From Promethearchaeota archaeon (GTDB lineage: Archaea > Asgardarchaeota > Lokiarchaeia > Sigyniarchaeales > SOKP01), in NCBI GenBank assembly GCA_016839555.1, contig JAEOUA010000011.1, positions 160,001 through 224,000 of the forward strand: 64,000 nt of DNA, in the 5' to 3' direction. Positions 17,443 through 30,820 of this stretch are shown here, piece by piece (positions within the stretch are counted from its first letter, which is position 1; each line of letters starts with the position of its first letter). Below the pieces are notes generated by a model. The model had not been told where the DNA came from, ran no database searches, and saw only the letters and a list, made by a program, of their open reading frames with translations. Both the position numbers and the translations under genes were made by a program.

Positions 17443-17748
17443 TTACATTAGTTCGATTTCGACTAATACTGATTCGGGTATGGAAATCTTCATGATCAAA
17501 TGCATGGATCGTTCATTCGCGATTATCTCAAACAAACGCTTATGGATTCGCATCTCAAATTTCGCCCATGTAGCAGTTCCCTGGCCCGATGGCGCTTTAA
17601 GGATTGGTACTAATAATTTTTTAGTGGGTAATGGGATTGGTCCATGCTTTTTAATCCCTTGAGTTTTACATACGCTCTCTATTTGGTTGCATACGGTCTT
17701 TAAATCTTCTAATTCTGTTGATGATAATCTGATACGGGCCTTTTGCAC
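17443..17748 (-). CDS. rps10: 30S ribosomal protein S10 (uS10)
   Basis: QKARIRLSS, GPIPLPTKKL, PSGQGTATW.KFEMRIHKRL; GTG start. Confidence 0.97.
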   Translation of the reverse strand: MQKARIRLSSTELEDLKTVCNQIESVCKTQGIKKHGPIPLPTKKLLVPILKAPSGQGTATWAKFEMRIHKRLFEIIANERSMHLIMKISIPESVLVEIELM

Positions 17749-25747: not shown

Positions 25748-28231
25748 ATGAAATTAGAAAATGATAAATATAGGATTAATTTTAAATTTAAACACGGCAT
25801 TTTAGATCAAAATATTAAAATTAAAACACAAAAAGGTTTTATTCCTGTTTTACGTAATTTTAACAATAAAAATATAATAAATTTTTCAAATAAACCATTA
25901 TATTTTTCAGCAATAAAGGGAAATAGAAATCCTAATAATTTTAATTTCATAATTAAATCTGATTCTGATATTGATATAGAATTTATTCCATCTATTGATA
26001 ATGAAGAGAATACTATTTATGAGAAATATGTAATCTTATTTCATAAAAAGAAAACATTATCCAAAATCTTAGCTGAGTTCGAAATTTGTTTAGGAAATCA
26101 AGCCGGTTTTGTTTGGGTACCACATCTCAGACCAAAACAAAAATATGTTATTGGAGATCATATTTTTAGATCTCCAGTAATTATCTATTCATCCAAAACT
26201 ATTGCATGTGCGTTAATTCCAGATTTAGATGAACTTAAAGAAAATAGACGATACCCCACTTATCTTAATTTGGAGATATACTCAAAAAATGAGAAAAATC
26301 CATACTTATCTTATGGTTTTGGGAAATATAAACCAGTAAAACATGTCTTTTTCAAAAAACAATGGTATAAGAAAATGAAATTCAAAAAAGGAGATTCCCT
26401 TACTTTTGGCTATTATATAAAGTTATTTCATAATAAATCACGCTCAGAACTTATCAAGACAATAAATTCATTTTTATGGATTAAATATGGTAAAAAACTA
26501 CTAAGACAGAATTTGAATCCTCAAATTCTTCCTTATAATATTAACGTACAAGAAGGCTTAAAAGCAATATTTAAGAGACATGAATATTGGGGCAATTTTT
26601 ATATAAATAATAAAAAGTGTGGTGGTATATGGCAAAGAAGTTGGTTAGGGAAGAAAAAGGCACCTTTAGAATATGTAGAACCAAAAGATTTAGCTTCTCA
26701 TAAAAAAGCCAGAATGAAAGAAATAGTTGGTACAAAATCAATTTTAGGGAAAATAATAATAAATATATCTTTTTCACCGAAGACTATTAAATTTTTTGAT
26801 AAGTTCACAAGAAATTATCCTATTGTACGTCGTGTGGCTGAAGTTTGGAACAATGCCTGGTTCTTAAACATTAGAACTGGATTTGGAATTAAATTATTTG
26901 GTATTGTTTATAATGATAATGATCTTATTGAAAAAGGGAATAGAATTTTAAATACTTTATTGAATTTACCACGGAAAAGAGGTTTATTTCCAAGTGTCAT
27001 TTTACCCGCAACTAAAAACGCTCAAGATTTCTCATTCATTAATGGAGTTAAAGGTTTTAGATATGATGATGAATTTCATCTTGTTGATTGTTCACTTGCC
27101 ATGTATTGGGCACTAAAATATTATCAATATTTTGAAAAAAATGAATTAATCAACGATTTGTCCTTAAAGTTAATAAATACTATAAAAGAGATTCAATTGG
27201 ATAATGGAGCAATTCCAACATATTTACGAATTGATGATTATAGTGAGAAACCTTTTATCAGCGAAAAATTAATTAATTCTGCTAGTTCTGGTGCATCAAT
27301 GATGTTTATTTTGGAATATTATAAAATAATGAAAGAAAAAGATTTAATACTAATGGCAAAACGGATTGCTAAATTTATTCATCATGAAATATTACCAAAG
27401 AATAAATGGCAGGATTTTGAACCATTTTATAGCTGTACGAATCTACCACTTAAGTTTTATGATAAATTCACTGAGAACAATGTGATGAATTGTCTTTCAA
27501 TTTATTGGTGTGCAGAAGGATTCAAAGAGTTGTATAAAATAACTAAAAATTCCAAATATTTAAAAATAGGAGAACATATACTTGGATTATTATCCCTATT
27601 TCAACAAGTTTGGAATTTGCCTTATATCGATTATAATACTTTTGGTGGTTTTGGTGCTCAAAATGCCGACGCAGAACTTGGAGATGCTAGGCAAGGATTA
27701 TTTGTCCGTACATATATGGATTATTATTTACTCACTGGAAATAAAGAATATATGGAGAGAGGAATTGCTGCCTTAAGAGCATGTTGGGCATTACAATTAC
27801 TAGAAGAATATAAAGATCAATGCCCTGGAAATTTATTAGGTATTGATAGCATAAAAGATATTGATAAAGGTTGCGTGAATGAGAATTATGGTCATTCGGG
27901 AATAGACTTTCGGACCCCTGGTTATGAAATGTTTGATTGGGGTATAGGAACATCAATTATGGCTACAGCTTACGTTAAATATAACTTTGGAGATCTATTT
28001 ATAGACTTTAAAGAACAAGCTGTTTGGGGAATTGATGGTCTTTTAATTGAAGAATATAATTTTAGTTCTAATATTATTGAAATATATTGCAAAATCATTC
28101 TAAATAAAAAAAATATTATCATAAAAGCTAGAAATATACCAGAAAATCTCATAAATATAAAAATTAATAATCAGCTAATTAAATTAAGAGACAATAATCA
28201 ATTAAAAAAAGGGTTTATATTTACTATTTAA
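25748..28231 (+). CDS. Large soluble protein with a C-terminal (alpha/alpha)6 glycosidase-like domain
   Basis: Helix-hairpin repeats (IQLDNGAIP, ELYKITKNSKYL, DYYLLTGNKEYMERG); conserved-looking DFEPFYSC, GGFGAQNADAE and ENYGH. Confidence 0.6.
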   Translation: MKLENDKYRINFKFKHGILDQNIKIKTQKGFIPVLRNFNNKNIINFSNKPLYFSAIKGNRNPNNFNFIIKSDSDIDIEFIPSIDNEENTIYEKYVILFHKKKTLSKILAEFEICLGNQAGFVWVPHLRPKQKYVIGDHIFRSPVIIYSSKTIACALIPDLDELKENRRYPTYLNLEIYSKNEKNPYLSYGFGKYKPVKHVFFKKQWYKKMKFKKGDSLTFGYYIKLFHNKSRSELIKTINSFLWIKYGKKLLRQNLNPQILPYNINVQEGLKAIFKRHEYWGNFYINNKKCGGIWQRSWLGKKKAPLEYVEPKDLASHKKARMKEIVGTKSILGKIIINISFSPKTIKFFDKFTRNYPIVRRVAEVWNNAWFLNIRTGFGIKLFGIVYNDNDLIEKGNRILNTLLNLPRKRGLFPSVILPATKNAQDFSFINGVKGFRYDDEFHLVDCSLAMYWALKYYQYFEKNELINDLSLKLINTIKEIQLDNGAIPTYLRIDDYSEKPFISEKLINSASSGASMMFILEYYKIMKEKDLILMAKRIAKFIHHEILPKNKWQDFEPFYSCTNLPLKFYDKFTENNVMNCLSIYWCAEGFKELYKITKNSKYLKIGEHILGLLSLFQQVWNLPYIDYNTFGGFGAQNADAELGDARQGLFVRTYMDYYLLTGNKEYMERGIAALRACWALQLLEEYKDQCPGNLLGIDSIKDIDKGCVNENYGHSGIDFRTPGYEMFDWGIGTSIMATAYVKYNFGDLFIDFKEQAVWGIDGLLIEEYNFSSNIIEIYCKIILNKKNIIIKARNIPENLINIKINNQLIKLRDNNQLKKGFIFTI

Positions 28232-28390: not shown

Positions 28391-29527
28391 TTAGTAACTT
28401 AAGAGAAATTTATTTCCTAAATGCACGTTATTTAAGTATTTCTTAGCAATAATGAGACATCTCATAGCTTGTTCATTAGGGTTAATTCCTAAATCTCTCA
28501 TCTGATAATCGGGATGGAAGACTAATAATGAATAGGGAATATTTTCATCTATGGAGCTAATAAATTGGGCAATTTTTTCAACATCTTTATAAATTGTGTA
28601 TCCAGGCACTAAAAGAGTGCATCCACTTAGCTCTGGCATTTCTTTTTCTCTCGTTCCAAAATATTTTTCTGCTAAGAATTTAAAATTAGAAAGTGTTCGT
28701 TTATTAGTATTACCACATAAAGCATAGTTTAATTTTTCATAAAATGCTTTTAAATCAAATTTAATATTTCCGCCGGTTTTTATTGCGATTTTCATGCATT
28801 CTTCAACCAAATCTCTATTTCCACTTCCATTCCATTCCCAACACACTCGAAATTTTCTTTTTTTTTGGTATTTTATCTTTTTAAGTATCAGATTTGAAAT
28901 CCTTATTGTAAATCTAAGTTGAGGTTCAGGGGTCCCTCCAAAATAACAGATACACGTAATTTTTTCATTATTAGCAATTTCCTCAGCTACATCTTCCGCA
29001 CATACTAGATTTCTTTTTGAAATAATCTTATGAGAGGCATTTTGACAAAATAAACAATCAAAAGAACAACCATACAAAAAGGCGGCATAACTGTAAGTGC
29101 CAAATTCAGGACCTTGATAATTGGAATATTCAGGAAATCCATATTCAGTTCCAGCAGGACAAAACCAAGCATTGCAGCAGTTTGTAGGATTTGAATCGAG
29201 ATATCCATGTAGATAACCTTCTGATTGATTAGGCATAGGTAGCTTTCCTTCCCTATCCTTTTTTATATTTCGCAAGCCACAATAACTTGTATCCTCCTCT
29301 GAAAGCCTACATTCATTTATACATAAATTACAGATAAATTTTAATTCTGATTCGGGGCATTTTGGAGGGGATGGGGGCAATCCTACTTGTTCTCGAACTC
29401 TCGCATGAATGGACATAACATGACTTTTTACTCTCTCCCAATCCTTGGTAAGAATACACTCCCTGCAAATCTTGAGAGTCTGTGAAATTAATTTATCTTT
29501 TTTCCCACAAAATTCACAAGTACCCAT
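28391..29527 (-). CDS. Radical SAM protein (PflA/AmmeMemoRadiSam-like)
   Basis: GCSFDCLFCQN (CX3CX2C), YFGGTP, WEWNG, KFDLKA and LLVFHPDY; N-terminal Cys clusters. Confidence 0.9.
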   Translation of the reverse strand: MGTCEFCGKKDKLISQTLKICRECILTKDWERVKSHVMSIHARVREQVGLPPSPPKCPESELKFICNLCINECRLSEEDTSYCGLRNIKKDREGKLPMPNQSEGYLHGYLDSNPTNCCNAWFCPAGTEYGFPEYSNYQGPEFGTYSYAAFLYGCSFDCLFCQNASHKIISKRNLVCAEDVAEEIANNEKITCICYFGGTPEPQLRFTIRISNLILKKIKYQKKRKFRVCWEWNGSGNRDLVEECMKIAIKTGGNIKFDLKAFYEKLNYALCGNTNKRTLSNFKFLAEKYFGTREKEMPELSGCTLLVPGYTIYKDVEKIAQFISSIDENIPYSLLVFHPDYQMRDLGINPNEQAMRCLIIAKKYLNNVHLGNKFLLSY

Positions 29528-30181
29528 TTATTCAACCTCTTTTTTTAATAATAAAAAGGTTTGCCCTCCTTTTTGCTGAGGATTATCTTTAATAACAAAT
29601 CCAGTAAAATTATTATTGATAAATGAAGTAAGATAAAGTTTTAATTCTTTTTGATTATATGGATAAAATTCAATCACAGCACGTCCTTTTTGCTTTAAAA
29701 TTAAAAATATTTGTCGAGCTGTTTCATCTAATACTTTTCTCATACTTTTTAAATCAGTCTTTTTATATGTTATAAAATTATATGCCGAGATAGAAATAAT
29801 AAAGTCGATTTTTTGAGGTTTTATAGGGAGATTGATTATACTAGCTAAGATGAGTTCCTCTCGAGTTTTATAATTAGATTTATTTCTCTTTTGGGATGCG
29901 ATTATCAACATATCTTTTAAGACATCAATTCCCACTACATTAAATCCGAGATTTAATAATTCATTGGTTGAGAAACTGGTTCCACAACCTAAATCCAATA
30001 TAAGATAATCTGAAAACTCTAATTTTTCATACTCTCCTAATTTTGGATCAAATAAATATTCAACACATCTTAGCGTAGTTGTTCTCTGATTCCTTTCCAT
30101 CCATGTTAAATTATTATATTCAATTGCCTTTTCTCCAGTGTAATCATCTGGAAAACGTGGCAGAGAATGTTTTCGTGTCAT
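29528..30181 (-). CDS. Bud23/WBSCR22-like SAM-dependent (rRNA m7G) methyltransferase
   Basis: Y...A..Y......Q...TLR..E.L; ILDLGCGT; DFIISISA; AVIEFYP.N; FTG..KDNP...FLLL, all collinear with yeast Bud23. ATG at 30181 (the track starts at TTG 30196). Confidence 0.8.
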   Translation of the reverse strand: MTRKHSLPRFPDDYTGEKAIEYNNLTWMERNQRTTTLRCVEYLFDPKLGEYEKLEFSDYLILDLGCGTSFSTNELLNLGFNVVGIDVLKDMLIIASQKRNKSNYKTREELILASIINLPIKPQKIDFIISISAYNFITYKKTDLKSMRKVLDETARQIFLILKQKGRAVIEFYPYNQKELKLYLTSFINNNFTGFVIKDNPQQKGGQTFLLLKKEVE

Positions 30182-30430: not shown

Positions 30431-30820
30431 ATGATCAAAATGGCAGAAAAAGAAAAAGTTATATTAGTTGTTGACGATGAACCTGACATACTAAATCTTA
30501 CTAAGAAATTTTTGGATTTAGGAAATTATAAAACCATTACGTGTAGTAATGGAAAAGAAGCTATGAAAATCATAGCAGAAAAGTATAATGTGATCGATCT
30601 CATTTTATTGGATATTATGATGCCTGGTCGTGATGGATACTCCATTTTAGAGGAAATAAAGACCAATGAAGATTATAAAGATATTATTGTCGTCCTTTTC
30701 ACCGTTAAGAGCTTCAACGAGGACATTCAAAAAGGAAAACGATTAGGAGCTGATTTTTACATTACTAAGCCTTTTTCGGGAAAAGAACTTTTAAAAAAAA
30801 TAGATGAAATATTAGCATAA
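30431..30820 (+). CDS. Stand-alone response regulator receiver (CheY-like)
   Basis: ILVVDDE, LILLDIMMP, FT and YITKPF. Confidence 0.93.
   Translation: MIKMAEKEKVILVVDDEPDILNLTKKFLDLGNYKTITCSNGKEAMKIIAEKYNVIDLILLDIMMPGRDGYSILEEIKTNEDYKDIIVVLFTVKSFNEDIQKGKRLGADFYITKPFSGKELLKKIDEILA

Follow-up and report, generated by a model that had tools for sequence, protein, structure and literature searches.

Does a Lokiarchaeon encode the counterpart of Bud23, the methyltransferase that acts on the small-subunit rRNA of eukaryotes? This question is raised by a gene on the minus strand of the 64,000-nucleotide stretch of Promethearchaeota DNA analyzed here (the window), which corresponds to positions 160001–224000 of contig 11 in a 3.74-Mb genome assembled in 12 contigs (G000). 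Bud23 of S. cerevisiae and BUD23/WBSCR22 of human are 18S rRNA (guanine1575/1639-N7)-methyltransferases, working with Trm112 and TRMT112, respectively; the guanine that they modify belongs to the P-site of the small subunit, and Bud23 takes part in pre-40S maturation. According to two reviews, Bud23 homologs are missing from archaea, whose 16S rRNA has no known m7G at the corresponding position (PMC5372719; PMC6144793). BUD23 is among the ribosome biogenesis factors traced in the supplement of another study, the available part of whose main text gives no archaeal profile for this protein (PMC8481954). A literature search found no paper relevantly linking Bud23/WBSCR22 with Asgard archaea. An earlier note on this DNA had proposed that the gene encodes an archaeal Bud23 and that it is a candidate eukaryotic signature protein.

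The gene (29528..30181, stop included) is an intact ORF. It runs from an ATG at 30181 to a TAA stop at 29528–29530, with a coding part at 29531–30181, and its 217-aa product is named P0001. The initiator methionine is shared with close homologs, the nearest of which come from MAGs labeled Lokiarchaeota or Promethearchaeota. The surrounding DNA is AT-rich (G+C content of 27–36% in the window), and an Rfam scan of the whole window returned no RNA family match. P0001 has the hallmarks of a class I Rossmann methyltransferase, namely, a GxGxG motif I within LDLGCGTS (residues 62–69) and the acidic residue D86 at the end of beta2. The strings on which the comparison with Bud23 had been based are all found in its translation (DYTGEKAIEY..NQRTTTLRCVEYL, DFIISISA, AVIEFYPYN, FTGFVIKDNP, and FLLL). 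Those of yeast Bud23 are present in the PDB alignment of yeast Bud23 with a paralog described below.

The similarity to Bud23 extends over the entire catalytic domain. In a phmmer search of P0001 against all PDB chains, the best five distinct sequences are Bud23/WBSCR22, with E values of 6e-12 to 9e-10. Human Bud23/WBSCR22 is matched at 5.6e-12 and the yeast protein at 4.5e-10, the latter over residues 17–212 of the query and 17–198 of the chain. The next match, to a generic SAM-dependent methyltransferase (1.4e-6), covers residues 60–151 only, that is, the SAM-binding half. An AlphaFold2 model of P0001, built from an 84-row alignment, has a pLDDT of 93.5 and the expected strand order. When it was compared with the PDB by Foldseek, the top eight matches were yeast and human Bud23/WBSCR22 (E values of 5e-18 to 4e-15, TM scores by target of 0.73–0.91), followed by Trm11 of A. 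fulgidus at 5e-12. Likewise, eukaryotic proteins carrying a WBS_methylT tail matched at E values of about 1e-13 to 1e-8 in a search of 1.8 billion representative proteins. A. fulgidus Trm11 and the H. volcanii proteins Trm9, Mtq2, and Hvo_0019, which are known or expected clients of archaeal Trm112 (PMC6144793), share the class I fold with P0001. However, they resemble P0001 far less, and only in the SAM-binding half, and they lack both the Bud23-type N-terminal helix and the FYP...NP C-terminal half.

Pfam and NCBIfam recognize in P0001 only the generic Methyltransf_11/25/31 families, with NCBIfam scores far below the curated cut-offs. The same generic label, shared with UbiE and BioC, is attached to the whole P0001 family in databases, but a phylogenetic tree of 74 sequences (IQ-TREE, LG+C20) separates the Bud23-like family from generic methyltransferases with support values of 100/99. 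Sequence, fold, and phylogeny agree in placing P0001 within the Bud23/WBSCR22 family in the broad sense; the family is genuinely represented in a Lokiarchaeon by the flagged gene. The resemblance beyond the SAM motif reported in the earlier note is, in both sequence and fold, above chance and above the level of generic methyltransferases, and its preference for Bud23 over a generic Methyltransf_11 protein is borne out by the tree.

P0001 and Bud23 have in common the SAM-binding motifs, the SxSA loop, the FYP motif, and the end of the domain, with a TM score of up to 0.91 by target. As had been noticed, P0001 stops where the catalytic domain of Bud23 ends and, according to Pfam, has no WBS_methylT tail (PF12589). 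This basic C-terminal extension was found in nine of ten long eukaryotic representatives; the archaeal proteins of the two types described below, 200–220 aa long, lack it. P0001 also differs from Bud23 by two insertions, located before beta1 and before beta3, and by the replacement of its signature residues by LPxFP, N-F, E(FYP), and QKxGQT.

Searching the genome with P0001 revealed a second Bud23-like gene on contig 12 (G000:C12:227830-228462, or L003:1492-2127 on the minus strand of that locus). It encodes a 211-aa protein, P0274, of similar size, also without tail, and sharing about 30–33% identity with P0001 over its full length. It lies head-to-head with the gene for ribosomal protein eS25 (L003:2260-2559, plus strand; Pfam Ribosomal_S25, above cut-off). 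We refer to the flagged form as type A and to the contig-12 form as type B. Some members of both types already bear the JGI product name 18S rRNA (guanine1575-N7)-methyltransferase.

Type B is the closer relative of Bud23. It matches the yeast protein at 1.5e-23 with 86.7 bits, twice the 42.7 bits obtained for type A. When 35 eukaryotic Bud23 representatives were searched against the genome, their best match was type B in 31 cases and type A in four, with median scores of 85 bits for B, 73 for A, and 42 for the next locus. The reciprocal search that the earlier note had suggested therefore favors the paralog over the flagged gene as the counterpart of Bud23. The reading in which the flagged gene is the archaeal Bud23 ortholog, making m7G with Trm112 at the G1575 equivalent of the 16S rRNA, can draw on its sequence and fold, on the presence of a Trm112-like gene in the genome, and on the linkage, in related genomes, of type A to the uS10 gene and, through type B, to that of eS25. 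It is nevertheless difficult to reconcile with the existence of a paralog that is the reciprocal best match of most eukaryotic queries. On these comparisons, type B is a better candidate than the flagged gene for the functional archaeal Bud23.

The two types differ most clearly in their signature motifs. We compared them in an alignment that included eukaryotic and DPANN proteins (120 type A, 120 type B, 22 eukaryotic, and 26 DPANN-type sequences). In type B, eukaryotic, and DPANN proteins, four segments hardly vary, and all four are replaced in type A. In the N-terminal lid, RPE gives way to LPxFP with a deletion of six to seven residues. After beta4, the motif SxSAxQW, whose Q and W are 100% conserved in the three other groups, becomes SxSAYNF, whose Y, N, and F are 100% conserved in type A. 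After beta5, QFYP (Q in 95–100%) becomes EFYP (E in 100%). Finally, the hairpin NPxxKK[RK]K is replaced by NPxQK[SG]GQT, with frequencies, in percent, of Q99, K91, S68, G100, Q93, and T97. P0001 itself has LPRFP, SISAYNF, EFYP, and NPQQKGGQT, and hence none of the residues that define Bud23 proper (RPE, SxSAxQW, QFYP, and NPxxKK[RK]K). Type B, on the other hand, keeps all of these hallmarks (RPE, SxSAxQW, QFYP, and NPxxKKRK). N135, F136, E171, and G206 are found in 100% of the 120 type A sequences, and the sites of the first three are occupied by Q, W, and Q in 95–100% of the type B, eukaryotic, and DPANN-type sequences. This typing also holds for the copies from individual genomes. The loss of the Q-W, Q-FYP, RPE, and KKRK signatures further weakens the case for type A as the Bud23 ortholog.

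The SAM-binding motif I and the Asp of beta2 are kept in all groups; in type A, motif I (GCGTG) and the acidic residue of beta2 are conserved in 96–100% of the sequences. The Asp of motif III is a Ser in P0001 and in 18% of type A proteins. In class I methyltransferases, segments equivalent to the four replaced ones surround the substrate pocket. The type A substitutions, being invariant or nearly so, point to purifying selection acting on a changed pocket. Such a pattern is expected of an active enzyme whose substrate site has been modified, and not of a decaying gene.

In the 74-sequence tree, eukaryotic Bud23 is monophyletic (100/100). It belongs to a clade (93/88) that also contains type B, the copies from DPANN, and those of two Asgard families with a single gene (f5 and f27), and from which type A is excluded. 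With the generic methyltransferases as root, type A and the copy from a third family (f32) make up a basal grade. P0001 therefore lacks both the reciprocal best match and the sister position to eukaryotic Bud23 that would be expected from Bud23 proper. Constraining eukaryotes and type A to group together costs 37.8 log-likelihood units (AU test, P = 0.069), and constraining type A with type B costs 18.0 units (P = 0.17). The sister relationship of the flagged gene and eukaryotic Bud23 implied by the earlier note is thus disfavored, although not strictly rejected, by these data. This formal tolerance of the AU test is the last point that speaks for type A as the m7G-forming ortholog, a reading that we hold to be quite improbable given the best tree, the lost signatures, and the closer paralog. 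The task of Bud23, if any protein performs it in this organism, would rather fall to type B.

These results leave room for type A to be a duplicate of type B that has evolved fast. Since the best tree places type A outside the clade of type B, DPANN, and eukaryotic proteins, the duplication could predate the Lokiarchaeia, or this position could result from a long-branch effect. The interpretation that we favor, with a probability of about 0.55, is that type A is a neofunctionalized, ribosome-linked RNA methyltransferase of the Bud23 family, whose target would be other than the Bud23 m7G site.

A gene coding for a 378-aa radical SAM protein (28391..29527, minus strand; Pfam Radical_SAM, 1.9e-12) starts directly after the methyltransferase gene, the junction being TAA-ATG with no spacer, and the two are probably cotranscribed. 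A gene for a single-domain response regulator (30431..30820, plus strand; Pfam Response_reg, 3e-26) is divergent from the type A gene. Among the 22 type A loci of the family to which the window belongs, the radical SAM gene is adjacent to type A in 15 and the response regulator gene in 20. In most related loci, the gene for ribosomal protein uS10 is found 0.1–3 kb downstream of type A. In 15 of the 22 loci of the window's family, the map reads response regulator, divergent from type A, then radical SAM and, 0.1–3 kb further, uS10; in some other loci of this family, uS10 directly follows type A with no radical SAM gene between them. In the window, tblastn with the uS10 protein of a related locus (L011; Pfam Ribosomal_S10, 5e-26) located the gene at 17446..17748 (G000:C11:177446-177748) on the minus strand, that is, on the same strand as type A and 10.6 kb downstream. 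To judge from the gene order in the related loci, it is a remnant of a conserved A-(radical SAM)-uS10 linkage. The interval separating the radical SAM gene from uS10 contains an 827-aa ORF (25748-28231, plus strand) with no Pfam family at E ≤ 0.001.

The abutting radical SAM gene raises the possibility that the substrate of type A is not an RNA but, for instance, a ribosomal protein or a small molecule, perhaps in a pathway with the radical SAM enzyme. The absence of any spacer, the recurrence of this adjacency in 15 of 22 loci, the loss in the window's family of the basic KKRK hairpin, which is a plausible RNA-binding patch, and the UbiE-like label given to members in the source databases would all agree with such a role. 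However, type A loci of the sister families, and some of the window's family, have no radical SAM gene, and the association therefore seems to stem from its late insertion between A and uS10. The radical SAM protein itself belongs to an uncharacterized archaeal family, whose clusters in a protein atlas are unnamed and labeled mainly Bathyarchaeota and Nitrososphaerota. The protein scores below the cut-offs of all NCBIfam models it matches, and its nearest characterized relatives are glycyl-radical activases, at an E value of only about 1e-4. It also contains three extra N-terminal Cys clusters. As the sole characterized relatives of type A are rRNA methyltransferases, a non-RNA substrate appears rather unlikely to us, and an RNA target remains our preferred assignment.

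In 12 genomes of the sister families, a type B gene is directly followed by a type A gene on the same strand. The complete maps read eS25, divergent from B, then A and uS10 (loci L011-L019, including closed contigs of 4.32, 4.36, and 6.04 Mb). In L011, the gene after eS25 encodes a BpsA_C protein (branched-chain polyamine synthase-like). This tandem arrangement suggests that the two types arose by tandem duplication. Two metagenomic representatives, P0126 (412 aa) and P0238 (382 aa), contain two tandem Bud23-like domains in a single chain and may result from fusion of the B-A gene pair or from read-through in gene calling.

Such pairs and two-domain chains, together with the change of the motif III Asp to Ser in P0001, could also be explained if type A were a noncatalytic or regulatory partner of type B, either a pseudo-enzyme or a heterodimer subunit, as in other paired methyltransferases. 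This explanation sits badly with the near-complete conservation of motif I and of the beta2 acidic residue in type A, and with invariant pocket substitutions that fit a working active site. Moreover, the two genes are on different contigs in the window's family, and only B was seen in about 14 genomes and only A in several, many of these assemblies being incomplete. We regard an inactive partner as improbable, and a catalytically active type A with its own substrate as the better account.

Trm112 is the obligate partner of Bud23, whose beta3 it pairs with in a beta-zipper, and the genome search proposed by the earlier note did reveal a Trm112-like gene. It encodes a 207-aa protein of the Trm112p family (PF03966, 6.2e-11) on contig 5 (about 452.3–453.0 kb; L001:1375-1998, minus strand of that locus). 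Its zinc knuckle is split, with a CPxC motif near the N-terminus and a CxxC motif near residue 155, separated by about 130 residues. This split knuckle recalls the long Trm112 forms of crenarchaea and eukaryotes (PMC5372719); the protein is larger than these forms, which are 130–140 aa long. It is predicted that type A may work with this Trm112-like protein. The sole 16S rRNA match in the assembly (G000:C5:603237-603905) ends at the contig edge after about 660 nt, and the 3′ domain, which holds the Bud23 target site, is absent from the assembly.

We then considered the distribution of the family among 400 species genomes of the window's phylum, representing 33 families, using protein searches and a profile derived from the 84-row alignment. 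Most genomes of the window's family, and most of those of three sister families in its order, have type A, and likewise type B; the protein searches found single copies in three further families of the phylum. The profile search is bimodal, true family matches having E values of at most 1e-43 and being found only in seven families (f1-f5, f27, and f32). Single-copy genes of the QW/Q type occur in f27 (L027-L029; genomes of 1.3–1.4 Mb) and f5 (L025/L026), and a single-copy gene of the NF/E type, hence type A, in f32 (L030), the latter counting against the scenario given below. With this profile, the Bud23-like family was not found in 26 of the 33 sampled Asgard families. Weak matches in these 26 families (1e-16 to 1e-25) were discarded as generic methyltransferases, covering only model positions of about 20–170 and lacking the four signature motifs.

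A further scan of one genome per prokaryotic species, for which the query was a single pattern of limited recall from a seven-row alignment of unlabeled relatives, returned matches in MAGs labeled Micrarchaeota or simply archaeon, with genomes of 0.7–1.2 Mb. In one DPANN phylum, a full-length copy was found in 16 of 201 sampled genomes, with E values of at most 1e-53. The occurrence of copies in DPANN and the lack of true matches in 26 of the sampled Asgard families indicate that the family is archaeal and patchy, and not confined to Asgard archaea and eukaryotes. The proposal of a eukaryotic signature protein is accordingly weakened by this distribution. The Bud23 family may plausibly have arisen in archaea; the evidence does not show a vertical descent specific to Asgard.

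These observations can be combined in the following scenario. An archaeal Bud23-type gene, similar to type B, would have been duplicated in tandem in the ancestor of this order of Lokiarchaeia. In the lineage of the window's family, type A would then have parted from type B, kept its link to uS10, and gained the radical SAM gene immediately behind it. Type A has kept its SAM-binding core and the entire fold of Bud23. The N-terminal lid, the loop after beta4, the segment after beta5, and the basic hairpin are remodeled, and their role in forming the pocket, taken from general knowledge of these enzymes, would make them the seat of a change in specificity. Since the fold and the SAM core are maintained and the pocket segments are remodeled, the most likely substrate of type A is an RNA involved in translation, probably the small-subunit rRNA. 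The target nucleotide or atom would differ from that of the Bud23 m7G. A more elaborate scheme, which we consider doubtful, is that A and B form a two-enzyme module, perhaps a heterodimer, acting on the head of the Lokiarchaeal small subunit. Type B would write the m7G and type A a second mark, to be elaborated, in the window's family, by the radical SAM enzyme.

The Bud23 family is thus present in Lokiarchaeia as two conserved forms tied to ribosomal protein genes, and it is also found in DPANN archaea. This corrects a tempting misannotation, by which both genes of a genome would be named Bud23 when the flagged one is the remodeled form. Our comparisons pinpoint the type B paralog as the candidate for a eukaryote-like step and lead us to define type A as a new subfamily of the Bud23 family. 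If the two-enzyme module were confirmed, the Bud23 step of eukaryotes would descend from a richer archaeal rRNA-modification system.
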